64,000 bases of DNA from Burkholderiales bacterium (GTDB taxonomy: Bacteria; Pseudomonadota; Gammaproteobacteria; Burkholderiales; JACQAP01): assembly GCA_035275265.1 (NCBI GenBank), contig DATENC010000004.1, positions 75,843 through 139,842 of the forward strand, written 5' to 3'. Below, piece after piece: positions 1 through 26,983 of the stretch. How positions within the stretch are numbered: the stretch's first letter is position 1; every line of letters starts with the position of its first letter. Under the pieces are notes generated by a model. The model was not told where the DNA came from. It ran no database searches and saw nothing but the letters and a program-made list of their open reading frames with translations. The position numbers were made by a program, and so were the translations under genes.

Positions 1-97
1 TACCCTTGTTTTACGCGTTCGAGAAAAGCGTGTATCAGGCGAGAGGTTGAAGAGAGGCCCGCGACCGGCGGATTGGCGAAAGCAAATCCGCCGCCGC

Positions 98-302
98 GGG
101 AGGGACGAGGGAACAAGTGCAGGGGCGAGGGGCGAGGGACGAGGAGCGAGGGAAGGACTGTCTGTAGTAGCGGTGATTGAGGGATCAAGGAATTGGGTGA
201 TTAGCACCCATCTCTCAATCACCGCACTACTTGGTAACGCCAGTGAATGGCGAATGGTTAGTCGTTAGACTAAATCGCCCAATCGCCCAATCGTCCAATC
301 GC
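98..302. repeat. mosaic word-repeat locus R1 (G-heptads 98-156; GATTG-word palindrome 172-224; AATCGCCC octads 272-302)
   Basis: Tandem GAGGGAC/GAGGGGC words. GGTGATTGAG pairs with CTCAATCACC. An 8-bp stem hairpin lies just upstream at 67-92. Confidence 0.85.
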
Positions 303-408
303 AGGCGTCCCTCGGGCGATGCGCGATTGAATAGAATGGGACGACAATCCACAGTGCTACGCTGACTGCCACCGATTCCATCCCATCAACAACCGAGCAT
401 AGTCGACC

Positions 409-864
409 ATGATCCAGACCCGCCCCTTGTTTACCCTAACGGTGCAGGTTCCGCGCGTCGTCGATCTCGGCGACACGCCGAACGGGCATCGTCGCATCGC
501 CACCGTCTCGGGCGGCACGTTCAAGGGCGAACGCCTGAACGGCACGGTGCAGGCGCCGCCCGGTGGCGACTGGATCCTGGTGCGCACGGATGGCACGATG
601 GTGCTCGATGTGCGACTCACGCTCGAAACCGATGACAAGCAACTCGTGTACATGTCGTATCGCGGCCTGCGGCACGGACCGAAGGACGTGATAGCGCGCC
701 TGAATGCCGGCGAAGCGGTCGATCCGTCGACCTACTATTTCCGTACGACGCCGGTATTCGAAACCGCTTCGAAAAAGTACGACTGGCTCAACCGCATCGT
801 CGCCGTGGCCACGGGCAGGCGCGAAGCGAGCGGGCCGATCTATGACGTGTTCGAGGTGCTCTAG
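409..864 (+). CDS. DUF3237 family protein (UPF0311-like beta-barrel)
   Basis: 151-aa ORF with the motif series GDTPNGxR, GGTFxG, GGDW, FET and YDWLN typical of DUF3237. The next gene starts immediately after its stop. Confidence 0.8.
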   Translation: MIQTRPLFTLTVQVPRVVDLGDTPNGHRRIATVSGGTFKGERLNGTVQAPPGGDWILVRTDGTMVLDVRLTLETDDKQLVYMSYRGLRHGPKDVIARLNAGEAVDPSTYYFRTTPVFETASKKYDWLNRIVAVATGRREASGPIYDVFEVL

Positions 865-1836
865 GTGCGCTTCGTGATTGTCGGCGCTGGTGCGCTAGGG
901 TCCATCTATGCGGCTTACCTTGCCCGCGCTGGGCATGAGGTTTCACTGATTGCGCGTGGGGAGCGAGCCGCGGCACTTGCCAGGCGCGGCATCGGAATCG
1001 TGGGACAGGATTCGTTTTCAATCCCCTGCAATGTTGTCACGCAACCGGAAATGTTACGGGAGGCCGACGTGGTCGTCGTGGCCACCAAAACCTACGACAC
1101 CAAACCGGCGCTGACGCCGCTTCGCGGTCTCCGCGTCAAAAGCGCCTTTTCCGTGCAGAACGGCGTGCTCAAGAACCAGCAGCTCAGCGACGTTTTCGGG
1201 CCGCAGGCGACGCTCGGTGCGATCAGCATGATGGGTGGCAACGTCCTGCCAGCCGAAGGAGACCTGCCTGGCGCGGTGCGTTACAGCGTGGCCGGTCCGA
1301 CAACGATCGGTGAACCTGCGGGCGGTGATTCTTCACGTGCAAGAGAGATTGTGGAGACGTTCGAGAGTGCAGGCCTGAAGGCGCGCGCTGCGGACGACAT
1401 TACGTCGATCGAGTGGTCGAAGTTCGTCGCCTGGTCGGGTTACAGCACGTTAGCGGTAATGACGCGTCTTAACACGTGGCGCTTTCTGCTTGACACCGAT
1501 ACGGCCCTGATCGCCGCCCGCGTCATGCGAGAAACCGCTGCCGTCGCGATACGCCACGGAGTCACCCTGCAGGACAGCGGCTTTACCAGCCGGGATTTTA
1601 TCAACGCCAGCGAGGAAGACGCGGTCAAGGCGATACAAGCCCACGGCGAAAAAATGAGGACAAACGCACCCGACTTTCGACAATCGATCCTGCAGGACGC
1701 GGACCGCAACCGGCGCCTCGAGGTTAACGAGACCCTGAATTACACGATGGCGCTGGCAGCGAAACTGGGCGTTGCAACACCGACACTCGACCTGTGCTGT
1801 CGAATCCTCCGGGTAGTGTCACGTGCTGCCGAATAA
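865..1836 (+). CDS. 2-dehydropantoate 2-reductase family (PanE/ApbA-like) oxidoreductase
   Basis: GTG start. N-terminal Rossmann motif VIVGAGALGSIYAAYLARAGHEV and a C-terminal ApbA-like helix region (GVATPTLDL). Confidence 0.8.
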   Translation: MRFVIVGAGALGSIYAAYLARAGHEVSLIARGERAAALARRGIGIVGQDSFSIPCNVVTQPEMLREADVVVVATKTYDTKPALTPLRGLRVKSAFSVQNGVLKNQQLSDVFGPQATLGAISMMGGNVLPAEGDLPGAVRYSVAGPTTIGEPAGGDSSRAREIVETFESAGLKARAADDITSIEWSKFVAWSGYSTLAVMTRLNTWRFLLDTDTALIAARVMRETAAVAIRHGVTLQDSGFTSRDFINASEEDAVKAIQAHGEKMRTNAPDFRQSILQDADRNRRLEVNETLNYTMALAAKLGVATPTLDLCCRILRVVSRAAE

Positions 1837-1840
1837 GCGC

Positions 1841-2031
1841 AGAACTGCAGGGGCGAGGGACGAGGGGCGGGGGCGAGGGACGAGGGAAGAGGAAATAGGT
1901 AAAGGTGGGTTCGTATTTACCCTTCACCCCCACATGCACCCGGAGGGGTGTCACTCTTTTACTCATTTATGGCCGAAGGCCGGTATCCCCTTGCGGGGCA
2001 CTCATTCACTTTTTCACCCTTCACCCCTCAC
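1841..2031. repeat. mosaic word-repeat locus R2 (A-D-E-C modules) between convergent genes
   Basis: AGAACTGCAGGGGCGAGGGACGAGGGGCGGGGGCGAGGGACGAGGG, then CACATGCACCCGGAGGGGTGTCAC (1931-1954), GGCCGAAGGCCGGTATCCCCTTGCGGGGCA, and CCCTTCACCCCTCACC. Confidence 0.9.
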
Positions 2032-2034
2032 CAT

Positions 2035-2745
2035 CTAGTTCAGCCCCGCTGCAATCTTCTTGATTTCGTCCGCGCTGCGCTCCCCAGCTAGCGGCGTCCC
2101 CGGCATCAGGTACTTGCCTTTTTCCAGCCCGCCGATCAGCACCGGTTCATAGCCGACATCGCGTATCAGGCGTGAAGCGATCTCGGCGGCCTTGGCGTCA
2201 TCGCTCGCGATCGGCATGCCGACTTTCCCGGGCTCCTGGTACGCCGCGCCCATCTTCGCTGCAGCGATCGCATTGAAGGCGCGTACCAGACGCGTGCCGG
2301 GCAGCAGCTCCGCCGACGCCAATCCTGCGCCTTTCTCGAGCGCCCATTTCCCGGTCTCGCCGTCGCGGTGAGTAAAGGGATTGTTGGTGTCGATGACGAT
2401 CTTGCCCTTGAGCACATCCGCCAGGTCTTTGCCGACGGAAGGCAACGCGTGATACGGAACCGAGATCATCACCACTTCGCCGAAGGTCACGGCCTCGCGT
2501 GGCGTCCCAGCCTTGGCGCCGCCACCGAGTCGCTTGGCGAGTTCCTTGTCGTGTTCGATGTTGCGCGAGGAGAACATGACTTCGTGGCCAGCCCGCACCC
2601 AGGTGGCGCCGATGGCGCCGCCGACGTTGCCCGAGCCGACGATACCGATCTTCATCTTGGATTGGGCGAATACAGGGAAGGGCAAGGCACTCACGACAAT
2701 GGCTGCCCCGACGAAAGCGACGAATTCACGACGGCTTTGTTTCAT
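2035..2745 (-). CDS. NADP oxidoreductase, coenzyme F420-dependent family (Npd-like), with a Tat-type signal peptide
   Basis: ATG at 2745 preceded by GGAGGAA. N-terminus MKQSRREFVAF...VFAQS (twin-arginine motif) followed by KIGIVGSGNVGGAIG Rossmann. ATGA overlap with the upstream gene at 2742-2745. Confidence 0.75.
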   Translation of the reverse strand: MKQSRREFVAFVGAAIVVSALPFPVFAQSKMKIGIVGSGNVGGAIGATWVRAGHEVMFSSRNIEHDKELAKRLGGGAKAGTPREAVTFGEVVMISVPYHALPSVGKDLADVLKGKIVIDTNNPFTHRDGETGKWALEKGAGLASAELLPGTRLVRAFNAIAAAKMGAAYQEPGKVGMPIASDDAKAAEIASRLIRDVGYEPVLIGGLEKGKYLMPGTPLAGERSADEIKKIAAGLN

Positions 2746-3680
2746 GGCAATTCCTCCATTAGTTGGATCATTCGTTTTCTCATGGCCGCATCCGGCAGCC
2801 GGCCCACGGCGCCGCCCATGTTGTCCGCCATGTTCGAAGGCCGGCTGGTGGCTGGCGTGATGGCCGTGACGGATGGGTGGCTCGCAATGTATTTGAGGAA
2901 GAACTGGGCCCAGGAGTTCGCATCGAATTCGCGCGCCCAGTCGGGGACCTCGTGCCCCTTCACCCGCTGCCATAGCCGCGTGCGACCGAAAGGCATATAG
3001 ACCAAAACGCCGATGCCCTTGTCGCGCGCGAGCGGCAGGATGGTCTCCTCGACTTGACGATTGTCGACGGCGTAGTCGATGCCGATGAAGTCGATGCGTT
3101 CCTTGCGCATCAGCTGCACCAGGTCGGCGTACTGTTCAAAGGTGGTGGTGACTCCGATGTAGCGGATGCGACCTTTCTCCTTGTAATCGCGCAGAATGGG
3201 AAGCTGGGTGGGAAGGTCGCCGAGGTTGTGCACCTGCACGAGATCGATCGCCGGTTTGCCGATGCGCCGGAAGGACGTTTCGAGCTGTTCGCGCGCCGCT
3301 TTGGGATCCGCGGACCCGCCGCCGCGCGATGCGACATTCAGTTTGGTCGCCCAGAAAAGTTTCTTCTCGATCTTGAGCTCCTGCGCCATGCGTCCGGCCA
3401 CCTCCTCGGAGGCGCCGTAGGAGGGCGCGGTATCGAAAACCCTGCCACCGAGGTCGACCATCTGCTTCAGGACCGCGCGCAATGCGTCGACGTCATCGCT
3501 GCGCGCGACCTGCGCGAAGGTGGCCGAGCTGCCCAGGCCTACGATCGGGAGCTGCTCGTTGGTCCCGGGTATGACGCGCGTGATGAGCCCGGCGGGGTTG
3601 GCAAGCACGGCTCGCGGATTGAGGGCCAGCAATCCACCGGCACCCATCGTCCGCTGCAACCATTCACGACGGGAAATCAT
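2742..3680 (-). CDS. aldo/keto reductase with a Tat-type signal peptide
   Basis: N-terminus MISRREWLQRTMGAGGLLAL, then AKR-like regions (FDTAPSYG, QVHNL, YIGVT). ATGA overlap with the upstream MFS gene at 3677-3680. Confidence 0.8.
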   Translation of the reverse strand: MISRREWLQRTMGAGGLLALNPRAVLANPAGLITRVIPGTNEQLPIVGLGSSATFAQVARSDDVDALRAVLKQMVDLGGRVFDTAPSYGASEEVAGRMAQELKIEKKLFWATKLNVASRGGGSADPKAAREQLETSFRRIGKPAIDLVQVHNLGDLPTQLPILRDYKEKGRIRYIGVTTTFEQYADLVQLMRKERIDFIGIDYAVDNRQVEETILPLARDKGIGVLVYMPFGRTRLWQRVKGHEVPDWAREFDANSWAQFFLKYIASHPSVTAITPATSRPSNMADNMGGAVGRLPDAAMRKRMIQLMEELP

Positions 3681-4972
3681 GCAGGAGTTCCTTGCGGTTG
3701 TGCTTCGGTACCATTCGCCTGCGCGCGCTGGGCACGGCCCAGCCAGAGGCCAAGCGCGATCCACGCCGCTGCGAGCGGAAAAGCCACGGCGGCAAGCGCG
3801 CCCAATCCCATGCCCAGCCGCCCGAGAAGTCCCTCGCTTTGCGCGCCGACCAGATCTCCCGTGCGATACACGAACGTGTCGATGAACGCCTTTGCCTTGT
3901 AGCGGTCAGCGCGCGGCACCACAGTGAAAAGAGTCTCGCGCGCCGGCCGCATAATGCCACGCTGCACGGCGCGGAAGGTGGCCTCGAAAGCGATCAGTGC
4001 CGCGAGTGATCCTGCGATCGCCAGACCCAGAAAGCCCAGCACGGCGGTCAGCGGCAACAGGGCCAGCGTCAATGGCACCCCCAGGCGCTTCATCAGGTGT
4101 CCCGTGACGATCAGTTGCAGGACCAAGGTCGTCACTTGTGTGATGAGGTCGATGTGCGCGAACATCGTCGTGCGCGTGTCGACGTCGGTTCCCAGCGCGG
4201 CGACCATCTGCAGGCGCGTGAAATACAGGAAAGTGACCATGATCGCAAGGATTAGCACGTAGCCGCAGATGCCCAGGAGGTAGGGCGAACGGGCCACCGA
4301 CTGCAACCCCTGCCAGGCGCTGCCGCCGATCACCGCATGCTCCTCGCGCACGACGCCGGGCTGGGCAACTTCGGGCCGCAGCCGCGTGACCCACCAGGCC
4401 GCACCGAGCGCGAGCACGAGGAACGCCGCCGCGACGAGCAGTAACGCTGGCGTGCCGAGCGGTTTGGCCAGTTGGCCCGCGAGCCACGGTCCAAAGATTG
4501 CTCCCAGGGTTCCGCCCACCGCAATGGCGCCGAAGAATCGCTTGCCCTGGTCGAGCGTGAAACGGTCCGCCATCAGCGCCCAGAACAACATCGTGGCGAA
4601 CAGGTTGAACACGCTGAACCACACGTAGAACACCTGGCCGGTTCGCTGTCCGACGCTTTCGGGTGTAAGGACCAATAGCAAATAGAACGCCACCAGCCCG
4701 AAGGCGAAGAAAAGGTAGGTCGCGTTGACGAAGACGAGGCGCCGGAACCGGCTCACCAGCCAACCGAACACCGGGTTCACCAGCAGCGTCACTAGCACCG
4801 TGCCCACGAACAGCCAGCGCAGTGCTTCGATGCCGCGCTGCATGCCGAGGGCCTCGCGCGCGGGCCGTATCACCATCAGCGCGGTGAGCACGCAGAAAAA
4901 GAACAAGCCGGCGACAAGCGCCGGTCCGACTTCCTCGCGGCGGATGTTGGTGAAGCGCTGCAGGAAGGTCAT
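3677..4972 (-). CDS. MFS-type membrane transporter, Npt1/Npt2 (ATP/ADP-translocase-like) subgroup
   Basis: 431 aa with about 12 hydrophobic segments. The N-terminus (IRREEVGPALVAGLFFFCVLTALMVIRPAREALG) resembles nucleotide-transporter-like MFS proteins. First gene of a three-gene overlapping operon. Confidence 0.65.
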   Translation of the reverse strand: MTFLQRFTNIRREEVGPALVAGLFFFCVLTALMVIRPAREALGMQRGIEALRWLFVGTVLVTLLVNPVFGWLVSRFRRLVFVNATYLFFAFGLVAFYLLLVLTPESVGQRTGQVFYVWFSVFNLFATMLFWALMADRFTLDQGKRFFGAIAVGGTLGAIFGPWLAGQLAKPLGTPALLLVAAAFLVLALGAAWWVTRLRPEVAQPGVVREEHAVIGGSAWQGLQSVARSPYLLGICGYVLILAIMVTFLYFTRLQMVAALGTDVDTRTTMFAHIDLITQVTTLVLQLIVTGHLMKRLGVPLTLALLPLTAVLGFLGLAIAGSLAALIAFEATFRAVQRGIMRPARETLFTVVPRADRYKAKAFIDTFVYRTGDLVGAQSEGLLGRLGMGLGALAAVAFPLAAAWIALGLWLGRAQRAQANGTEAQPQGTPA

Positions 4973-4975
4973 GAC

Positions 4976-5240
4976 AGGGACGAGGGAAGAGGGACGAGGG
5001 GCGAGAGCCGAGAGGGACTAAGGGAGATCACAGCCGGAGGGTCAATGAGTGAAGGGTAAGAGAACCGGATACGAGTGACAAGTGACAAGTGACGGCGAAT
5101 GGCAGTGAAGGGTGTGACACCTCTCCGGGTGCATGTGAGGGTGCCCCGCAAGGGGATTCCCACAAGGGGATACCGGCCTTCGACCATAACCGGCCTTCGA
5201 CCATAACCAGCCTTTGGCCATAAATGAGTGAAGAATGAAC
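4976..5240. repeat. mosaic word-repeat locus R3, the largest, containing all module types
   Basis: G-heptads, GTGACAA words (5075-5092), reverse D motif 5113-5136, and reverse E block with a 17-nt unit CCGGCCTTCGACCATAA in 2 copies plus 1 degenerate copy. 5141-5201 is identical to the reverse complement of 18932-18992. Confidence 0.95.
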
Positions 5241-5383
5241 ATCAACTGCTTTTCACCTTTTACAAACGCCAGAGATTTCGTATGCTTTGAGCGTAGCCTA
5301 TGAACACATGGACTATGCCGTGCGGTTGCGACTGCGGCGCTCGGCCCACATCTTCAGACCTTATAACTCAGGAGAAGAACATC

Positions 5384-5815
5384 ATGACGAGGAAGTCACT
5401 ATTGCTTGGTCTTTCGCTATTTGCCGCCGCTGCGTTCACCTACCCCGCTGCGGGTGCAGGGGTCGGAACGATGACCGCTGCCGATGAATTGCAATGGCAG
5501 GAGATGGCGCCCGGTTCGCCGCTAAAACTCGTGGTGCTCTGGGGTGATCGCAGTAAGGGTGAATACGCGATGCTTCTGAAGATGCCCGCCGGGTTTGTCG
5601 CGCCGATTCACGCTCACACCGGGGACTACTACGGTATGAACTTGACGGGAACCTGGCGCCACTCCTTTGACGGTGTCGCGGAAAAGACCATGCCACCGGG
5701 CTCCTATGTGTTTCAACCCGGGATGGGAATGCACGGTGATTCCTGCGTGGGACCCGAAGACTGCATTTTGTTCGTTCATCAACACGTGAAGGGCGATTTC
5801 ATTCCAAAGCAATAG
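5384..5815 (+). CDS. secreted cupin domain protein
   Basis: ATG at 5384 after AGGAGAAG. Signal peptide MTRKSLLLGLSLFAAAAF, then a cupin-like HAHTGDYYG...GxxxH core. Confidence 0.65.
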   Translation: MTRKSLLLGLSLFAAAAFTYPAAGAGVGTMTAADELQWQEMAPGSPLKLVVLWGDRSKGEYAMLLKMPAGFVAPIHAHTGDYYGMNLTGTWRHSFDGVAEKTMPPGSYVFQPGMGMHGDSCVGPEDCILFVHQHVKGDFIPKQ

Positions 5816-5926
5816 ACGCTGCCTTTAGGCTTCCGTTTCCGGTTTCGCTGAAACCATCGATCGCTTCTCGGCGCCGCGCGCTGGTTGCACACAAATGTAG
5901 CCGGGCGGCAAATGAGGGAGAAAGTC

Positions 5927-6976
5927 ATGCCACGAAAGCTGGGTCACAAGGAGCCGCAGCAATTCACCCGTCGCCGATTCCTGGGAGCAGCGGCAGCAGG
6001 TGCGCTGGCTTCCGGTTCGCTGGGTAGCGCTGAAGCACTGGGCGCAGCTCCAGAGGGCTGGCCGATGACCGAAAAGTGGTTTCCGTCACGTTGGGGCGCA
6101 GGCGATCAGGCAGGCGCTTCCAATCTGATGACCTCACAGAAAGTGCTTGAGGCCACGAGCCTGATCAAGGTCGGGAAAGTCCACAGCTTGGGACGTGTAT
6201 ACGAAGCAGGTATGCCCTTTTTCGGAACACGCGGCTGGAACCTTAAGATTCCGAGCGCGCCTTTTTACGGACCGGCCGGTCGGAACAAACTTATTGCCAA
6301 TGAAGAATACCTTTGCGCGGAGATCGGACAAGTTGGGACACAGTTCGATGGCTTGTCTCACATCGGTGTAGAGACCAAAGGTCCGCACGACAGCTCCGGC
6401 AAGCTTTACTACAACGGGTTCAATGGCACCGATGTCCATGGCGCGTTTGGCATGAAGAAGCTCGGTATCGAGCATGTCAAGCCGCTTGTGACACGAGCGG
6501 TGATCTTCGACGTGAAAGGATTGAAAGGTCGAAACCTGGAGAAGGGGGAAGAAATTAGCGCGCAGGACCTCCGGGACGCACTTGCCCGTCAACGGCTAAG
6601 CGAATCCGACTTCAAGGAGGGCGACGTCGCGCTCGTGCGTTGCGGCTGGGGTGATCAGTGGATGGTGGTCGACAACAAGAAATACTACGACGGCGAGCCA
6701 GGGGTGGGCCTCGATGCGTCCCAGTGGCTGGTGGATAAAGGGGCTTGCCTGGTCGGGGCCGACAATTGGGGCGTGGAGGTGATTCCGAACCCGGATCGCG
6801 ACCTGAACTTTCCGTGTCACCATTTGCTGCTGACGATGAACGGGGTATTCATGTTCGAGAACCTGAATCTGGAAGGCCCCGTGCGGGACGGCACCTGGAT
6901 CGGTGCATTTTTCTTTAGTCCCGTTCCCGTGAAGGGCGCAACAGGATCCCCAGGAAATCCGCTTTTTATTGTTTAG
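5927..6976 (+). CDS. cyclase family protein (kynurenine-formamidase-like fold) with a Tat signal
   Basis: ATG at 5927 after GAGGGAGAAAG. TRRRFLGAAAAGALASG twin-arginine signal. Cyclase-family core, but the usual HxGTHxDxPxH motif reads QVGTQFDGLSH. Confidence 0.65.
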   Translation: MPRKLGHKEPQQFTRRRFLGAAAAGALASGSLGSAEALGAAPEGWPMTEKWFPSRWGAGDQAGASNLMTSQKVLEATSLIKVGKVHSLGRVYEAGMPFFGTRGWNLKIPSAPFYGPAGRNKLIANEEYLCAEIGQVGTQFDGLSHIGVETKGPHDSSGKLYYNGFNGTDVHGAFGMKKLGIEHVKPLVTRAVIFDVKGLKGRNLEKGEEISAQDLRDALARQRLSESDFKEGDVALVRCGWGDQWMVVDNKKYYDGEPGVGLDASQWLVDKGACLVGADNWGVEVIPNPDRDLNFPCHHLLLTMNGVFMFENLNLEGPVRDGTWIGAFFFSPVPVKGATGSPGNPLFIV

Positions 6977-7118
6977 TCAACCTTTACTTGCTCACCCTCA
7001 CAGGCTTGCAGGTGTTCTCTTGGCGTCTTCGGGCCTAGAATAATTGCGCGCTGCGTAACCGTATCGTTCTGTCCGGGGCGCCGCCTGAACGGATTTATAC
7101 AGCCGGGAGAGCGTACAG

Positions 7119-8732
7119 ATGCTGGACTGGATCAAGAAGGACAACGGCCGTCCGGACCATCCGCTGCGCAATCCAGCGGCGGCCGCAAAGCTGCTTGCCG
7201 AAGTACGCGACTTCGATCCACTCACGGCGCTGAACGAGCTGAGCGCGTGGCTTGATGCGGTCAAGGGCGCCCCCAACAACGACGAAACAGTCCGCGGCGA
7301 GATTCTGTCTCTGATCCAGGAAGCGAGCAGCGCGCACGTATCCGCGCTATTGGCGCAATTTCTCGTGCCGCACAAAGATCATCGGGCGCCACGCGGGTCG
7401 GACTGGAACACCCTTCACCGTTACGTTGTGGGGCTGACGGGCGCGCTCACCGTGTCGGCCAGAATTCTGCTGACACAATCGGCGACGACCCCTTCGCTCC
7501 AGCTTCCCGGAGCAGCAGGCGCCGCGCGGGGAATTCACGCCTCTCGCACACTGGCGAAAATCTATCTCGTTCGCTACTTCAGCGTCCCGCCCAAGCTGTG
7601 GCGGCTTGCGTATGCAGTTCATGCCGACGCGGAGAAGGCTGGTTGCGCAACAACGCCCGTTCGCATGCACGCCACACAGAAAACGTCAACGAGCGTGACA
7701 CAGGAGTTGCTGCGGATGCTGATGCTGCAGTCAAGTTCGCCGGAGATGATGTCGCCCGAACATATCGAGGTTGCCGATCATGTGATCGAGCAACTGGGCG
7801 GAGATTTTACGCTGCGCCCGCGCGGCGTCGCCGACAACCCTTTCTGTTTCGATCCGGCGAGCGACCTGGCACCGCACCGCGCGCCCGCACAGCCGCCCAA
7901 TCCGGATACCGGAATTCGCTACTTCGGGGCAGGAACGGGATACGATGCCCTGGATCGACTGCACAAGCAGTTGGTGTCGACAGGGATCGCGGATGGCAAG
8001 CTCTCGGGCAAGGACATTCCTGTCCACACGCAAATCTCGGTCATCAAGCAATTGCTCGCGTTCTGGGGTCAAGCGTCTCCGTACTTCCCACCTGCCCGCA
8101 CGCCTGCTACGGGCCCGCTGCAGGTCGTTCAGGGCTATGCACAGATCTGGCAGCACCTGTCGCACGTTGGATCCGCTGCCACCGAGCTCGCGCTGGTGGA
8201 AGACGGCGACGTCGCAACGCAGCCCCCGGAAACGTGGGCTCTCCACGACACTGGCGGCAACGAACTCGGCGCGGAGATTCCGCAGCGATCGAGCGACTGG
8301 GTGCGATGCGGCGACCTTGTCGGCATCACGATGCCTGGCAGTGACGAGTGCTGGCTCGGCGTGATCCGCTCCATGCATGCTGAGCCCGATCGCAAGCGGC
8401 ACGCCAACATCTACGTCATGAGCCACCTTCCGCAGGCGGTGGAGATGCGCCCGGTCATCGCGAAGGGCGAAGTGAACATCCTCTCGGAGGCTGCGGCGCG
8501 GCAGTTCGGCTTCAAGAGCGTGCACGCGATCATCGTGTCAGACGGTGCCGGAGCGCCGCAAAATGCGAACTTTCTGTTGCCACCCGGCAGCTGGGAGGAG
8601 GGCCGCGTTTACGAAGCGACGATTGGGGGAGCTCCGCATTTCCTCCGCAGCCTTCTCCTACTGCGGCACGGCGACGATTTTGTGCGGGCGACGTTCGAGT
8701 GGGTGCAGAAAAGCAGTGAAGGACAGGTGTGA
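7119..8732 (+). CDS. hypothetical protein (537 aa), no confident domain
   Basis: Long ORF with coding-like composition. Its stop TGA lies in the first word of repeat locus R4. The C-terminal part (WALHDTGGNELGAEI...CWLGVIRSM) is faintly PilZ-like, which is very tentative. Confidence 0.6.
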   Translation: MLDWIKKDNGRPDHPLRNPAAAAKLLAEVRDFDPLTALNELSAWLDAVKGAPNNDETVRGEILSLIQEASSAHVSALLAQFLVPHKDHRAPRGSDWNTLHRYVVGLTGALTVSARILLTQSATTPSLQLPGAAGAARGIHASRTLAKIYLVRYFSVPPKLWRLAYAVHADAEKAGCATTPVRMHATQKTSTSVTQELLRMLMLQSSSPEMMSPEHIEVADHVIEQLGGDFTLRPRGVADNPFCFDPASDLAPHRAPAQPPNPDTGIRYFGAGTGYDALDRLHKQLVSTGIADGKLSGKDIPVHTQISVIKQLLAFWGQASPYFPPARTPATGPLQVVQGYAQIWQHLSHVGSAATELALVEDGDVATQPPETWALHDTGGNELGAEIPQRSSDWVRCGDLVGITMPGSDECWLGVIRSMHAEPDRKRHANIYVMSHLPQAVEMRPVIAKGEVNILSEAAARQFGFKSVHAIIVSDGAGAPQNANFLLPPGSWEEGRVYEATIGGAPHFLRSLLLLRHGDDFVRATFEWVQKSSEGQV

Positions 8733-8826
8733 GGGACGAGGGGCGAGGGACGAGGGTAGTGACAAGTGACGAGTGACAAGTGATGGGCCTAGCGGCAGTA
8801 AGGGAAAAACGGGAAGAACTGCAGGC
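8714..8826. repeat. mosaic word-repeat locus R4 (G-heptads + GTGAC heptads)
   Basis: GAGGGACGAGGGGCGAGGGACGAGGG followed by AGTGACAAGTGACGAGTGACAAGTGA, then CTAGCGGCAGTAAGGGAAAA and GAACTGCAGG. Confidence 0.9.
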
Positions 8827-8853
8827 GAAAGCATTATTGCTAGCGCACCGGCA

Positions 8854-9765
8854 TCACGGTCTGTCTGGCGTCGGCGTGGGGCTGGGTGGTGCAGGCACAG
8901 GCTGCGGACGGGGGTCGGACCCGCCTCTATTGATATCCTTTAGACACTCCTTGTGCGCCTTTTCACACTTGTCAACGGCAGCACTATGAGTGCCTAAGCA
9001 ATCCGGGCGCAAAGGAGAGAGCTTCCTCCTGTCCAGACATTTCTGATAGTTGCTCTCAGCCCGCCGTTTGCAACTGGCGTAGGGGCCTTGACACTTCAGG
9101 GCTGGACAGGTCTTTCTCAAGGTCTTGATGTATTCGACGCCCCGGCGCTGTATGAGATGTTCAGTGTTGTATCCGTATTCGCCGCTGCCAAACACCCAGT
9201 CTTCGCACCTCGCCTTGAATGCCCGTGGGAAGCTGCTTGGCAAGCCGCACGACTCGAATGACTTCGTTGTTTCGTCCTGCCCATCGGCGTTACAGTCGCA
9301 TGTAATCTCGCCGGAGTAGAAAACAGAACCCGGCGCTGCTGCCGGGTCTTTCTTGCAGTGATCCTCGGCACTGGAACGATCGGCAGCGGAATAAGGGGAT
9401 GACCATCCGCAGCTCGCGATGGATTGGCCGCTTCCGGCCGCCGCTTTTGCCTCGTGGTCCTCCACCTGTGCCGCGAGCGCGATTGACACCTCGGCTGGAA
9501 ACCCGGCGAGCACGTCCGCGATCTGGACCATACCCCCGCGGCACAAGCCGGCGCACCTGATGATGCTTCCCGCCCCCTGATTCTTCAGAACATGCGAAAG
9601 TACGACGACCGCGGCCGGTGATTTATCGCAGAACACATTGACTTGGTATATCTGATCGGCCCGTGCAGCGGAGGCGACGAAAACGCTTGCGGCGAGAAAG
9701 CCCAGTGCCGTTAGCCGGGAAAGCAGCAAATGGGTCAGGCACATACTTTCGGTTGGTCTGTCCAT
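8854..9765 (-). CDS. secreted cysteine-rich hypothetical protein with a Pro-rich C-terminal tail
   Basis: ATG at 9765 after GGAGAAG. Signal peptide ...LGFLAASVFVASAARA-DQ, about 19 Cys in the mature part, C-terminal RPQPVPAPPSPTPTPDRP. Confidence 0.65.
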   Translation of the reverse strand: MDRPTESMCLTHLLLSRLTALGFLAASVFVASAARADQIYQVNVFCDKSPAAVVVLSHVLKNQGAGSIIRCAGLCRGGMVQIADVLAGFPAEVSIALAAQVEDHEAKAAAGSGQSIASCGWSSPYSAADRSSAEDHCKKDPAAAPGSVFYSGEITCDCNADGQDETTKSFESCGLPSSFPRAFKARCEDWVFGSGEYGYNTEHLIQRRGVEYIKTLRKTCPALKCQGPYASCKRRAESNYQKCLDRRKLSPLRPDCLGTHSAAVDKCEKAHKECLKDINRGGSDPRPQPVPAPPSPTPTPDRP

Positions 9766-9856
9766 AATCTTCTCCGCATCGGACGTTAGGATGAAGGCCT
9801 TAAGTGCTGCTGAGAGAGTGAGCGTACTACGGGATCTCGTCCGTGCAACCGTACGA

Positions 9857-10429
9857 TCATTTCTTGGGGGTGTAAGTGAATTTCTGCCCGCCGATGCTTG
9901 CTTCGTACATCAGCCCACCCTTGGCAACAGTGAACGTCGCCATGCCTTTGTTGTAAGAGCCGGCAGTGGTGGCGTCATGTTTGCCTCCGCTGGCGCTGGT
10001 GGAGGTGCCGGCTGTGTTCGCGGCGGCCGATGCGCCGGCCGTGATGGCGACCGCGGTCGCCTGGACGCCGAACTCGAACTTGCCGGAGGTGAATTCGTCG
10101 AAGGCGCGCTGGTCCTGAAAGAACACGATCTGGCTGTAGCCCTGGCCGCCGAACTGCCAACCAACCGTTAGCTGTTTCATCGACGTGTTACCGACGTATG
10201 CTCCGTTCTTATAGACCCGGCCTTTGCCGTAGGCACCGCCGATGCCCACGCCGCCTTTGCCGATCGTCGGGAAAACTGCGTAACCGTAGCTGTGGTCGAA
10301 AAAACCCGAACTCGCTCCGGCCTCCTTGAATATCTTGATGGTATCCGTGTAATCGTCCGCCCAGACGCTAGTCGAGGAGCTGATCAACAACAGCAGTGCT
10401 GCGAAAAGGCCATATCCAAGTCGTTTCAT
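9857..10429 (-). CDS. SYLF (DUF500/Ysc84-like) lipid-binding domain protein, secreted
   Basis: Start at MKRLGYGLFAALLLLISS (signal peptide). Gly-rich SYLF-like core (GKGGVGIGGAYGKG, VGWQFGGQGY). The longer ORF upstream runs into repeat R5. Confidence 0.75.
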   Translation of the reverse strand: MKRLGYGLFAALLLLISSSTSVWADDYTDTIKIFKEAGASSGFFDHSYGYAVFPTIGKGGVGIGGAYGKGRVYKNGAYVGNTSMKQLTVGWQFGGQGYSQIVFFQDQRAFDEFTSGKFEFGVQATAVAITAGASAAANTAGTSTSASGGKHDATTAGSYNKGMATFTVAKGGLMYEASIGGQKFTYTPKK

Positions 10430-10438
10430 GTTAGAGAC

Positions 10439-10496
10439 CGTGAATGAGTGAATGAGTGAAGGGTAAGAGCGAAAACGGAGACTAGGGGCGAGGAAG
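10439..10496. repeat. mosaic word-repeat locus R5 (GTGAATGA octads)
   Basis: GTGAATGAGTGAATGAGTGAAGGGTAAGAG...ACTAGGGGCGAGGAAG. Confidence 0.8.
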
Positions 10497-10636
10497 CTCC
10501 ATAAGCGCCTCACTGAACATCCCGCTTTTCAAAAGTCATCTGCCGGTCTTGTGGTTGCATCAAGGAACTGAACTTCGACGTGCCATTTATCACCACGTCT
10601 GCGTCAGGATTCTACTTCGATCTTGATGAGAAAAAC

Positions 10637-10737
10637 AGGGACGAGGGGAGAGGGAAGAACTGCAGGGCTAGAAGTTAGGAAAGGCTCTAGTGATGTTACC
10701 CTTCACCCTCACATGCACCCGGAGGGGTGTCACTTCT
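10637..10737. repeat. mosaic word-repeat locus R6 (A + D modules)
   Basis: AGGGACGAGGGGAGAGGGAAGAACTGCAGG, then ACCCTTCACCCTCACATGCACCCGGAGGGGTGTCAC (D motif at 10710-10733). Confidence 0.9.
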
Positions 10738-10769
10738 TCACGCCACCACCACGGCGCAAGGGGATGTCA

Positions 10770-11588
10770 ATGAAATCGATCAAGCGCGAGCAATACGAGG
10801 AAGCCCTCGAAGCACTGCACACCGAGCTGATCAACCTGCAGCACTGGATCATTGCCAATAACCAGCGCGTGGCCGTTATTTTCGAGGGGCGCGATGCCGC
10901 CGGCAAGGGCGGTGTGATCAAGGCCATCGAGGCACCGCTCAACGATCGCTACGTGCGCACCGTCGCGCTTTCGAAACCCAATGAACTTGAGCGCAGCCAG
11001 TGGTACTTCGAGCGCTACGCGGCCCAGTTGCCGAGTGCTGGTGAACTTGTCCTCTTCGATCGCAGCTGGTACAACCGCGCCGGTGTCGAACTGGTCATGG
11101 GCTTCTGCACACCCGCCCAACACAAGCAGTTCCTGAAGGACTGCCCGGCGTTCGAACGCCTGATCACCAACGACGGCCTGATCCTGCTCAAGTACTGGCT
11201 CTGCGTCGACCAGGAAGAACAGGAAGAACGCTTCGCCGAACGGGCGAAGGATCCCGCCAAGCGCTGGAAACTGTCTCCAATCGACATCAAGGCGCGCGAG
11301 AAATACGCCGCATACGGCAAAGTGCGCGACAGGATGCTGCGTGCGACCCACACCGATTACGCACCCTGGTACGTGGTCAACTTCAACGACCAGAAACGCG
11401 GTCGATTGAACCTGATCGATCACCTGCTCAAGCGGCTGCCTAAGCGCGAATCTCCGGCCCCGGAACTGTCTCTACCCAAACTCTCCGGCAAGCCTCTCAA
11501 GGAACACATCCCTCGCGGTTTTCTCATTGAAGAGGGTGTGTGGAGAGGGGTGAGGGGTGAGGGGAGGGCAGGGAACAGTGACAAGTGA
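10770..11588 (+). CDS. ppk2: polyphosphate kinase 2
   Basis: PPK2 motifs VIFEGRDAAGKGG (Walker A), FDRSWYNR and a lid region. Start at 10764 or 10770 (AAGGGG upstream). The last ~20 aa and the TGA stop are encoded by repeat R7. Confidence 0.85.
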   Translation: MKSIKREQYEEALEALHTELINLQHWIIANNQRVAVIFEGRDAAGKGGVIKAIEAPLNDRYVRTVALSKPNELERSQWYFERYAAQLPSAGELVLFDRSWYNRAGVELVMGFCTPAQHKQFLKDCPAFERLITNDGLILLKYWLCVDQEEQEERFAERAKDPAKRWKLSPIDIKAREKYAAYGKVRDRMLRATHTDYAPWYVVNFNDQKRGRLNLIDHLLKRLPKRESPAPELSLPKLSGKPLKEHIPRGFLIEEGVWRGVRGEGRAGNSDK

Positions 11589-12389: not shown

Positions 12390-12505
12390 AAGGGACGAGG
12401 GGCGCCCCGCAAGGGGATTCCCACAAGGGGATACCGGCCTTCGACCATAAATGAGGGAAGTGTGGCCCCCTCGTCCCTCTCCACTCGTCCCTCGCCCCTC
12501 GTGGC
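12390..12505. repeat. mosaic word-repeat locus R8 (G arm, reverse E block, C arm)
   Basis: AGGGACGAGGGGCG, then GCCCCGCAAGGGGATTCCCACAAGGGGATACCGGCCTTCGACCATAAATGAG (12403-12455, a 47-nt match to R3), then CCCTCGTCCCTCTCCACTCGTCCCTCGCCCCTCG. Confidence 0.9.
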
Positions 12506-18885: not shown

Positions 18886-19030
18886 AAAGGACAGGGGAGA
18901 GGGACGAGGGGTCACCCTTCACTCATTTATAGTCGAAGGCCGGTTATGGTCGAAGGCCGGTATCCCCTTGTGGGAATCCCCTTGCGGGGCACCCGCACAT
19001 GCACCCGGAGGGTGTCACGCCTTCACTTCT
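18876..19030. repeat. mosaic word-repeat locus R11 (forward E block x2 units + D motif)
   Basis: 18932-18992 is a perfect 61-nt reverse complement of 5141-5201. D motif at 18996-19018. Starts at the gspB-like TGA stop. Confidence 0.95.
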
Positions 19031-23924: not shown

Positions 23925-23980
23925 TTCCCCTCGCCCCTTATGGTCGAAGACCGGTATCCCCTTGCGGGGCATCCCCGCAC
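23925..23980. repeat. mosaic word-repeat locus R12 (C-heptads + forward E block)
   Basis: TTTTCCCCTCGCCCCTTATGGTCGAAGACCGGTATCCCCTTGCGGGGCATCCCCGC. Confidence 0.8.
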
Positions 23981-25866: not shown

Positions 25867-26874
25867 TCATGCCTTGCCGGCGGCCTGCACGGCCTCGACC
25901 AGTGCCTTGCCCTTCGGTCCGGCCCTGCCGACGAAGGTATTGATGACCGGCCCCATCTTCGAGCGGAAGCTTGGGATGTCGGGGTTCGGATTTGCCTTGA
26001 TCAGTTTGGCGAGTTCATTCCAGGCGGTCTGCTGCGCCTTGAGGTTTATTTCCCACATGTCCTTCTGCACGGCTTCGACGGCCGCGTCGCGAATTACCTT
26101 CTGCACGTCCGGCGGAAGCGACGCCATCTTCCTGGCGCTCGCCATCATCGACGCCTCGGTGAATATGTGGTGGGTGCGGGTAACGAAGCCGGCTACCTCG
26201 TAAGTCTTGGTTGAGACCATGAAATCAGCCGGCCCCTCGAATGCGTCGATCACGCCGGTCTGCAGCGCCGTGTAGATTTCCCCCGCTGGTATCGGTGTTG
26301 GATTGGCACCGAGCGCCTTGGCCATTTCGACCCAGGTTGGAATCTCGGGCACACGCAGGCGCAGCCCGCGAACGTCGTCGGCCGTCTGGATCGGCTTCCT
26401 GGACAGGAAGACACGAAAGCCCGAAGCACCCAGCGAGAGCACTTCCACACCGAGGGAGTCTTTTGCGTCCTTGCAGACTTGCTGGCCGATTGGCCCGTAC
26501 AAGACCTTCTTCACGTGATCGTAGTCGTGGAACAGGAACGGCAGCGAGACAAACCCGAAATGCGGTTGCCAGTTGCCCAAAGTGCCCAGGTCGGTCCAGC
26601 ACATGTCGAGCGTGCCGAGTTGCAGCGCCTCGGCCGAGGTGCGCAGGTTGAAAAGCTGGGAGGCTGGACGGATGCTGATGGTGACCGCGCCGTTCGTGCG
26701 CTGTTTGACCATCTCTGCGAATTTCTCCGCCACCCCGTGGATCAGATGGGTTGTCGGAACGTGGTGCGAGAACACCAGATTGATCGGCGCTTGACCCCAG
26801 CTCCGCCGCGGTAGAACCGCCACGCCGGCGGCCGCGGCGCCTGCCTTCAACAGATCGCGTCTGGAAATCGCCAT
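25867..26874 (-). CDS. dctP: TRAP transporter substrate-binding protein
   Basis: Tat-like signal MAISRRDLLKAGAAAAG, DctP-family length, and operon context. Confidence 0.9.
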   Translation of the reverse strand: MAISRRDLLKAGAAAAGVAVLPRRSWGQAPINLVFSHHVPTTHLIHGVAEKFAEMVKQRTNGAVTISIRPASQLFNLRTSAEALQLGTLDMCWTDLGTLGNWQPHFGFVSLPFLFHDYDHVKKVLYGPIGQQVCKDAKDSLGVEVLSLGASGFRVFLSRKPIQTADDVRGLRLRVPEIPTWVEMAKALGANPTPIPAGEIYTALQTGVIDAFEGPADFMVSTKTYEVAGFVTRTHHIFTEASMMASARKMASLPPDVQKVIRDAAVEAVQKDMWEINLKAQQTAWNELAKLIKANPNPDIPSFRSKMGPVINTFVGRAGPKGKALVEAVQAAGKA

Positions 26875-26983
26875 TGTTTACTTCCTCCTTTGCGCGTCAA
26901 CGCGACGCGGTGTCATTTTTGTGGGTCAGACGCAACAGAAGCCAGTCTAACGGCTCCAGTTCGCTGATGGCAATCGACGTAAC

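Follow-up and report, generated by a model that had tools for sequence, protein, structure and literature searches.

We report that a 64,000-nucleotide stretch of DNA from the metagenome-assembled genome of a Burkholderiales bacterium (GenBank assembly GCA_035275265.1, contig DATENC010000004.1, positions 75,843 to 139,842; referred to as the window, with positions counted from its first nucleotide) carries a minus-strand operon of three genes joined by ATGA overlaps. The genes encode a major facilitator superfamily (MFS) protein related to the NTT/TLC nucleotide transporters, an aldo/keto reductase (AKR) and an FNO/NpdG-like NADP-binding Rossmann protein (FNO-like protein), and both enzymes are predicted to be exported through twin-arginine translocation (Tat). 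The MFS and AKR genes are the core pair, conserved across phyla and gene orders, and only some lineages have the FNO-like gene. Moreover, relatives of the MFS recurrently pair with exported NAD(P) enzymes. This pattern is no proof, but it suggests that nicotinamide cofactor is supplied to the periplasm in some bacteria. For the operon itself, the reading that we put forward, at close to but below an even chance, is that it may constitute a periplasmic NADP(H)-dependent reductase module in which the MFS would supply or exchange NADP(H) for the periplasmic reductases.

The operon and its transporter

The three genes were identified from the list of open reading frames (ORFs) and by direct reading of the sequence, which confirmed both ATGA overlaps described in a first-pass annotation of the window (Table 1). 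The 4-nt overlap between the MFS and AKR genes (-3 spacing) recurs in approximately 20 orthologous loci, and a GGAGG sequence is present at 2757-2753, 8 nt upstream of the FNO-like start.

The MFS gene product scores above the Pfam gathering threshold for MFS_1 (50.5 bits vs 33.4), and its AlphaFold model shows approximately 12 long helices at low confidence (pLDDT 47). This model was built from close homologues, and the family was placed by profile-to-PDB sequence matches instead. Taken alone, the window MFS stays below the gathering score of Pfam TLC (PF03219; 15.9 bits, E = 0.0057, vs 21), gave no Npt1/Npt2 match and no family name in NCBIfam, and as a single-sequence query had no match in the PDB. 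The family to which it belongs comprises 8371 clusters (50% identity) at E <= 1e-3 and 1019 clusters at E <= 1e-30, and 37 of 52 diverse relatives match TLC (best E 2.9e-15), as do seven of ten further relatives (25-30 bits, above the gathering score), among them family members paired with Sec-exported enzymes. The family profile matches the ATP/ADP translocator structure 9j3n (E = 8.7e-24) and the plastid AtNTT1 structure 9j3j (E = 5.8e-17), both over profile positions 11-436, and the next-best MFS structure is OxlT with an E-value of just 7.8e-6.

Three signatures are shared with the NTT proteins: LRPxRD in TM1 (LRDTKD in NTT; general form LR(P/D)x(R/K)D), SPYLL (SPYIL in NTT; general form SPY(L/I)L) and ARE..F....KYKAKxFID (TKE..Y....KVKGKAAID in NTT; general form (K/R)E...K(Y/V)K(A/G)K..ID). 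The label "AAA family ATP:ADP antiporter" given to family members by JGI mirrors the same kinship. Judged from these profile and motif matches, the MFS family belongs to the NTT/TLC nucleotide-transporter lineage as one of its branches, with homology extending across all 12 helices, and is not an ordinary drug/sugar MFS. The likeness to the ATP/ADP-translocase group that the first-pass annotation had noticed at the N-terminus is thus borne out by HMM classification, which did not return an ordinary drug or sugar transporter.

Predicted export of the two enzymes

Both window enzymes are predicted to be exported via Tat. The FNO-like protein starts with MKQSRREFV...VFA followed by QS (complete signal in Table 1), with the twin-arginine (RR) motif SRREFV; the N-terminus passes the Tat model TIGR01409 (17.7 bits vs 16.7), the RR motif is kept in 118 of 120 homologues, and Rossmann beta1 begins three residues past the predicted cleavage site. 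A downstream start at M31 (MKIGIVGSG) was considered and rejected: the 30 upstream codons encode a conserved Tat signal, and the orthologues carry Leu in place of the internal Met, which excludes this start.

The AKR starts with MISRREWLQ...VLA followed by N and carries the RR motif SRREWL, which is kept in 115 of 120 homologues. The twin-arginine starts proposed earlier for both enzymes therefore lie in conserved coding sequence, and the true starts are not downstream of the RR motifs. R4 and R5 are retained by at least 97% of 53 AKR orthologues (36-85% identity), and the hydrophobic region (h-region) drifts as it does in real signal peptides. With TIGR01409, a Luteimonas orthologue scores 24.4 bits and a Marinobacter orthologue 16.2 bits (cut-off 16.7). 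The Luteimonas orthologues combine the Tat signal with a lipobox (LAAC), and this combination independently points to a location of the enzyme outside the cytoplasm.

We regard it as very improbable that the RR segments are non-functional, such that the enzymes would be cytoplasmic, or membrane-tethered and facing the cytoplasm, in an ordinary importer-plus-reductase cassette. What speaks for it is the window AKR itself, the N-terminus of which is unmatched by the Tat HMMs (TIGR01409, PF10518) and has a weakly hydrophobic h-region. Against it stand the RR conservation in the AKR orthologues in the face of a varying h-region, the TIGR01409 match of the FNO-like protein, the added lipobox in Luteimonas and the AlphaFold2 model of the AKR (pLDDT 71.5), in which the extension (residues 1-26, pLDDT <50) is a separate segment ahead of the hairpin of the AKR barrel.

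Identity of the AKR and the FNO-like protein

The AKR matches Aldo_ket_red (PF00248) with 110.8 bits. Its catalytic tetrad D83/Y88/K113/H151, as aligned to perakine reductase, is intact and conserved in the 53 orthologues, as is the C-terminal cofactor-loop motif TPATSR...DN. The AlphaFold2 model folds as an AKR barrel, and the best structural neighbours in the PDB are NAD(P)-dependent AKRs. Cytoplasmic AKR families 11-14 (YhdN, IolS, YghZ, perakine reductase, DepB) are the best neighbours in sequence and structure and share the (alpha/beta)8 fold and the D-Y-K-H tetrad, but only the clade of the window AKR has a conserved 27-residue Tat extension and the linkage to an MFS gene. Since identity in the structural alignments is at most 24%, i.e. 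below the 40% convention, the window AKR is, by sequence, a distinct AKR family.

The FNO-like protein matches F420_oxidored (PF03807) with 73.2 bits, in keeping with the domain-level part of the initial assignment as an F420-dependent-type NADP oxidoreductase. The protein nevertheless scores far below the cut-off of the NpdG/FNO equivalog TIGR01915 (58.4 bits vs 149.8), and its identity as a true F420 reductase was rejected on this score; the public name "NADPH-dependent F420 reductase" over-states what is known about it. Its nearest solved relatives are the FNO structure 5n2i and the NADPH-binding N-terminal domains of STEAP3/4, and it carries GSGNVGG (GxGxxG) and FSSRN, with Ser-Arg after beta2 for the 2'-phosphate. 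The GSGNVGG and SSRN motifs indicate that the protein binds NADP. Neither the AKR nor the FNO-like protein matches the Gfo/Idh/MocA family in Pfam or NCBIfam.

Linkage of the MFS and AKR genes across bacteria

The linkage was followed in a genome sample with one genome per species (80 loci; MFS orthologues of 60-90% identity), with loci from Burkholderiales, Gammaproteobacteria, Gemmatimonadota, Acidobacteriota and one Rokubacterium. In approximately 51 of the 80 loci a Tat-AKR gene directly adjoins the MFS gene, and a few others have one no more than 4 kb away. Several gene orders are found: the AKR gene can follow the MFS gene, often with the ATGA overlap, or precede it, or the two can be divergent. 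The FNO-like gene follows the MFS-AKR pair only in a betaproteobacterial subset, and occurs without an AKR gene in loci L025 and L070. The three-gene linkage of the first-pass annotation accordingly holds for MFS and AKR, across phyla and gene orders, and is lineage-restricted for the FNO-like gene. No further gene was found to be conserved as a neighbour of the pair; Bug/TctC, LysR, histidine kinase, EamA and other neighbours are lineage-specific.

In three close relatives the AKR gene has decayed and the MFS and FNO-like genes are intact (L003 6266-7093, L006 1744-2007 and L028 6230-7086). L006 has an AKR fragment and L028 an AKR frameshift, and of the AKR in L003 an internal deletion has spared no more than MISRREWLQQTM, which is now fused in front of the FNO-like gene. 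L003 was considered as an independent MFS-FNO pairing without AKR and rejected, given the internal deletion and the remaining AKR N-terminus. The decay in L003, L006 and L028 could reflect assembly artefacts in metagenome-assembled genomes or real loss.

Cultured hosts of loci with the MFS and an NAD(P) enzyme include Cupriavidus metallidurans CH34, Azotobacter chroococcum and Pantoea. In CH34 the Tat-AKR (MSIDRRTFLG...) precedes the MFS (NC_007974.2, 1425906-1428300), and genes for an S-(hydroxymethyl)glutathione dehydrogenase-like and an S-formylglutathione hydrolase-like protein lie right downstream of the pair (8430-10396 in the numbering of locus L083). These frmA/frmB-like genes may link the pair in CH34 to aldehyde detoxification.

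More than 100 Sinorhizobium replicons and 25 Rhizobium replicons carry a rhizobial orthologue of the Tat-AKR. On S. meliloti pSymB (L084, 5299-7610) a VOC-family protein is encoded on one side of it and a multi-pass membrane protein, DUF6064, on the other, and the latter may be an alternative partner of the rhizobial Tat-AKR.

Exported NAD(P) enzymes beside the MFS family

The wider neighbourhood was compared at 161 loci in two independent samples, 81 genome loci and 80 metagenome loci; the latter were seeded with the Catenovulum MFS protein (29-64% identity), and many of their contigs are short. The recurrent neighbours of the MFS family are signal-bearing NAD(P) enzymes, namely AKR, FNO-like, SDR, MDR, 2-hydroxyacid dehydrogenase and NmrA-like proteins, and the MFS has an exported NAD(P) enzyme next to it in 59 of the 81 genome and 35 of the 80 metagenome loci. 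In a tally made with a simple hydropathy and motif classifier, with four obvious errors corrected by eye, an export signal was predicted in 101 of 105 NAD(P)-family ORFs located at most 600 nt from the MFS. The corresponding number for those more than 1.6 kb away was 7 of 17 (Fisher p = 1e-7 vs adjacent), where the control set is small and its families were chosen from the neighbours themselves. Ten SDRs located elsewhere within the MFS loci have no signal.

Among the 123 immediate MFS neighbours in the metagenome sample, Pfam recognised Aldo_ket_red in 18, ADH_N/ADH_zinc_N (MDR) in 8, AhpC-TSA in 7, MFS_1 (tandem copies) in 6, and 2-Hacid_dh, adh_short and Epimerase in 2 each; some of the neighbour ORFs called in high-GC loci may be spurious. 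Every AKR neighbour in this sample has an RR motif at its N-terminus (RK once), and the MDRs (8/8), the 2-hydroxyacid dehydrogenases (2/2) and the SDR have classical Sec signal peptides. Over both samples, Sec or lipoprotein SDR partners were found in L043, L077, L080, L089, L090 and L121 (in L043 a lipoprotein NAD_binding_10 protein lies on one side of the MFS and a Sec-SDR on the other), Sec MDR partners in 8 loci, Sec 2-hydroxyacid dehydrogenase partners in L068, L092 and L097, and Tat extended SDR partners in L050, L134 and L135. Of these, L043, L050, L068, L077 and L080 belong to the genome sample and have no AKR gene.

Distant family members encoded on plasmids repeat this theme with different enzymes. 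A Sec-signal SDR precedes the MFS in Catenovulum. In Azotobacter chroococcum the MFS is followed by a Tat-FNO-like protein, and an SDR with the in-frame upstream extension DRRKFL lies two genes upstream of the MFS, past a gene for an MBL-fold hydrolase. On Pantoea pPAT9B04 an FNO-like protein follows the MFS, and its true start restores MSLSRRQLIK. Two RefSeq starts are apparently set too far downstream, dropping the Tat-type signals MSLSRRQLIKLAAITG (L088 6251-6988, Pantoea At-9b WP_223300542.1) and LLDRRKFLTASAGLG (L085 2900-3787, Azotobacter WP_040107453.1). Start-codon truncations of this kind would conceal exported NAD(P) enzymes from signal-peptide surveys.

Some loci carry more than one copy of the transporter gene. 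L080 has two MFS copies (4986-6338 and 9371-10810), each with its own paralogous SDR, and of the SDRs in this locus one is a lipoprotein, another bears a Sec signal and a further one lacks a signal; tandem or nearby duplicate MFS copies also occur in L143, L146, L152 and L163. In a marine subgroup, a signal-bearing AhpC/TSA-redoxin is encoded upstream of the MFS (L091, L094, L101, L103, L113, L117, L124) and cytochrome b561 downstream (L104, L113, L124), a periplasmic redox setting with no obvious NAD(P) enzyme.

These recurrent redox neighbours, AhpC/TSA in 7 loci and cytochrome b561 in 3, could also be taken to mean that the MFS carries an unrelated solute (for instance ATP/ADP, some other nucleotide, or a metabolite tied to the envelope or to stress) and is merely co-regulated with the reductases in a periplasmic detoxification or redox-stress regulon. 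The frmA/frmB-like genes after the pair in C. metallidurans CH34, and the VOC-family proteins beside the MFS in L020 and beside the S. meliloti AKR, would fit such a regulon. We consider this explanation improbable: ATGA coupling and persistence of the pair through changes of gene order and across phyla typify direct functional partners, and no regulator or other gene is conserved together with the pair.

What the transporter may carry

In the mechanism that we propose for the operon, the MFS would carry a nicotinamide dinucleotide through the inner membrane. It would do so most economically by an antiport of NADPH(4-) out against NADP+(3-) in, an exchange that would be favoured by the membrane potential, much as in ATP/ADP carriers; alternatively, the MFS might provide a single loading supply of cofactor. 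The exported AKR and FNO-like enzyme would then use the periplasmic cofactor pool to reduce carbonyl or other electrophilic substrates. A nicotinamide cargo is proposed because NAD(P)(H) is the sole ligand common to at least six unrelated partner families, and because the Sec and lipoprotein partners are not preloaded and the characterised relatives of the MFS all move nucleotides. As proteins exported through Sec or as lipoproteins pass the membrane in an unfolded state, such enzymes are unable to bring a cofactor along.

Several observations weigh against this proposal. Both window enzymes and all AKR and FNO-like partners use Tat, the route expected for enzymes loaded in the cytoplasm, and export of preloaded enzymes would make a cofactor transporter unnecessary for them. 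Approximately a quarter of the genome loci have no exported NAD(P) partner within 5 kb, and the replicon that carries the Sinorhizobium pSymB Tat-AKR orthologue (40% identity) has no MFS. Neighbours that carry no signal are the AKR on Pantoea pPAT9B03, the third SDR in L080, the SDR in L034, and nitroreductase and thiolase neighbours. The first of these is part of a locus (L087, Pantoea At-9b pPAT9B03, 2414-7122) that encodes a membrane-bound pyrroloquinoline quinone (PQQ) dehydrogenase, the MFS and a signal-less AKR of 279 amino acids; it looks like a system for periplasmic oxidation, import and cytoplasmic reduction, and is the clearest counter-example to cofactor supply. Furthermore, the window MFS lies below the TLC threshold and is approximately 20% identical to NTTs, and its substrate could have diverged. 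The signal calls come from our own hydropathy and motif heuristic and reading by eye. With a mass of ~745 Da, NADP(H) could be lost through porins, or periplasmic nucleotidases could degrade it, and we know of no description of an NAD(P)H pool in the periplasm.

Part of this evidence would also be explained if the AKR and the FNO-like enzyme bound NADP(H) tightly in the cytoplasm and were exported folded through Tat, as in the case of glucose-fructose oxidoreductase (GFOR) from Zymomonas mobilis. The cofactor would serve as prosthetic group for ping-pong or redox-neutral reactions, and the cargo of the MFS would be an organic substrate or product, i.e. a carbonyl compound, an alcohol or an acid. 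The use of Tat by both window enzymes and by every AKR and FNO-like partner agrees with this, as do the precedents of Z. mobilis GFOR and Caulobacter aldose-aldose oxidoreductase (AAOR) and the Sinorhizobium Tat-AKR orthologues with no adjacent MFS, and the signal-less reductases of pPAT9B03, L080 and L034 fit substrate import. However, one transporter family would then have to track at least six unrelated partner families that differ in their usual substrates, the Sec and lipoprotein SDR, MDR, 2-hydroxyacid dehydrogenase and NmrA-like partners cannot be preloaded, and the only characterised relatives of the MFS carry nucleotides. We hold preloading with substrate transport, the main rival of cofactor supply, to be rather unlikely for the window operon; across the MFS family it need not exclude cofactor supply, as the two models are compatible with each other.

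The first-pass annotation had called a transporter linked to two exported NAD(P) enzymes an unexplained combination and had speculated on cofactor supply. The combination is not inexplicable in itself, given the precedent of the NADP-loaded, Tat-exported Zymomonas GFOR, and the speculation, which is unproven, is strengthened by exported partners of several unrelated folds, some of them Sec substrates. Extending cofactor supply to the whole family is a more tentative step, to which we give a chance on the lower side of even: the MFS proteins may be a new class of NTT-like exchangers of NADPH/NADP+ (or NAD(H)) that would keep a periplasmic nicotinamide pool in free-living Gram-negatives, powering exported AKR, SDR, MDR, FNO-like and 2-hydroxyacid dehydrogenase enzymes.

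Gene coordinates, neighbouring genes and intergenic repeats

The coordinates of the operon and of the repeat blocks on either side of it are listed in Table 1. The flanking genes are a convergent ApbA-like gene (865-1836) and a divergent Cupin_7 gene (5387-5815), and the operon is thus limited to three genes. The divergent gene (+) encodes a predicted exported Cupin_7/ChrR-like protein with a Sec-type signal, and 5924-6976 (+) a predicted exported Cyclase-family (kynurenine-formamidase-like) protein with the Tat motif TRRRFLGAAAAGALA. An ORF elsewhere in the window, 25867-26877 (-), has the textbook Tat N-terminus MAISRRDLLKAGAAAAGVAVLP. In an Rfam scan of window positions 1-9000 for a leader RNA, the sole match was a sub-threshold CRISPR-DR, and promoter and terminator scans performed no better than on shuffled sequences.

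Table 1. Features of the operon and of the adjoining repeat blocks, in window positions.
Feature	Positions	Strand	Size, basis or reading
NTT/TLC-like MFS transporter gene, operon gene 1	3677..4972	-	431 aa; ORF, Pfam, family profile
Aldo/keto reductase (AKR) gene, N-terminal twin-arginine signal	2742..3680	-	312 aa from the ATG of the first-pass annotation; PF00248
FNO/NpdG-like NADP-binding Rossmann protein gene, N-terminal twin-arginine signal	2035..2745	-	236 aa; PF03807
AKR, predicted Tat signal peptide MISRREWLQRTMGAGGLLALNPRAVLA with putative cleavage site after VLA	3600..3680	-	Sequence, RR conservation
FNO-like protein, predicted Tat signal peptide MKQSRREFVAFVGAAIVVSALPFPVFA with putative cleavage site after VFA	2665..2745	-	TIGR01409, RR motif
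ATGA overlap, MFS stop TGA and AKR start ATG, translational coupling	3677..3680	-	Read directly
ATGA overlap, AKR stop and FNO-like start	2742..2745	-	Read directly
Upstream repeat block including 17-nt tandem repeats (x3); copy of a dispersed REP-like element	4983..5232	.	Repeat analysis
Downstream repeat block, inverted relative to the upstream block; contains palindromic GGTATCCCCTTGCGGGGCAC	1849..2027	.	Repeat analysis

The 17-nt units of the upstream block have the sequence TTATGG(T/C)CGAAGGCCGGT and are repeated three times in tandem at 5172-5222. The block is not specific to the operon, as further copies of the element are present elsewhere in the window: the composite REP-like repeat also occurs at 12402-12450, 18927-18992 and 23938-23972, and its recurrence is far above chance. 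A mobile cassette bounded by the inverted repeats that flank the operon was considered and rejected, since the element is found at no fewer than three other intergenic sites of the window. The downstream block may act as a terminator.

Relation to known systems and significance

The NTT/TLC proteins (AAA family, TC 2.A.12; Chlamydiae, Rickettsiales, plastids and microsporidia) are homologous to the window MFS over the whole 12-helix fold. The window MFS differs from them in its low identity (approximately 20%), its length (~430 aa vs ~500) and its score below the TLC gathering threshold. The MFS family is found in free-living soil and marine bacteria, it would supply the periplasm outwards instead of scavenging from a host, and it is genetically tied to exported oxidoreductases, a link not known to have been described for NTTs. 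As set out in the parts of the study by Major, Embley and Williams (2017; PMC5381601) considered here, characterised NTTs include the NAD transporters PamNTT4 and C. trachomatis Npt1, their known mode is antiport of charged nucleotides, and NTT-domain proteins are widespread in free-living bacteria where their roles are unknown, some PamNTT4-like homologues having been suggested to carry NAD. The same parts describe the phylogeny of these homologues and their HEAT and cNBD fusions, with no mention of a linkage to exported NAD(P) enzymes.

Zymomonas mobilis GFOR and Caulobacter AAOR are periplasmic NADP-containing enzymes that are exported folded via Tat, and they demonstrate that the periplasm can host a working nicotinamide enzyme. 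Their likeness to the window enzymes is functional only: their fold is Gfo/Idh/MocA and not that of AKR or FNO, with a non-dissociable cofactor and no transporter, whereas the window has a coupled nucleotide-transporter homologue and sister loci use Sec-exported partners. DsbD/CcdA-type systems pass the reducing power of cytoplasmic NADPH to the periplasm by thiol-disulfide exchange, and no cofactor crosses. They answer the same need as the proposed module, reducing equivalents across the inner membrane, and have no sequence relationship to it.

A literature search, in which most subscription journals were outside the scope, found no description of a periplasmic AKR or of a periplasmic NAD(P)H pool or transporter. 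The NTT-like transporter, the AKR, the FNO-like enzyme and the Tat-exported NADP enzyme are each of a known kind, and cofactor supply would, if true, be conceptually new. The genetically tractable host Cupriavidus metallidurans CH34 carries the MFS-AKR pair. Even if the idea of cofactor supply is wrong, the TLC-like MFS and the Tat-AKR make up a new, uncharacterised conserved module, and the window AKR represents a new AKR family of abundant soil Burkholderiales.

In the textbook view the periplasm is free of ATP and nicotinamide cofactors, and the redox enzymes known from it work with prosthetic groups that stay bound, with quinones or cytochromes, or by thiol relays. A widespread transporter dedicated to outward movement of NAD(P)(H), if true, would overturn this assumed absence of nicotinamide cofactors, and would explain the export signals on hundreds of AKR, SDR and MDR enzymes in the databases. 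Finally, it would give a function to the NTT homologues of free-living bacteria, a question which, going by the parts of PMC5381601 considered here, has been open since at least 2017.

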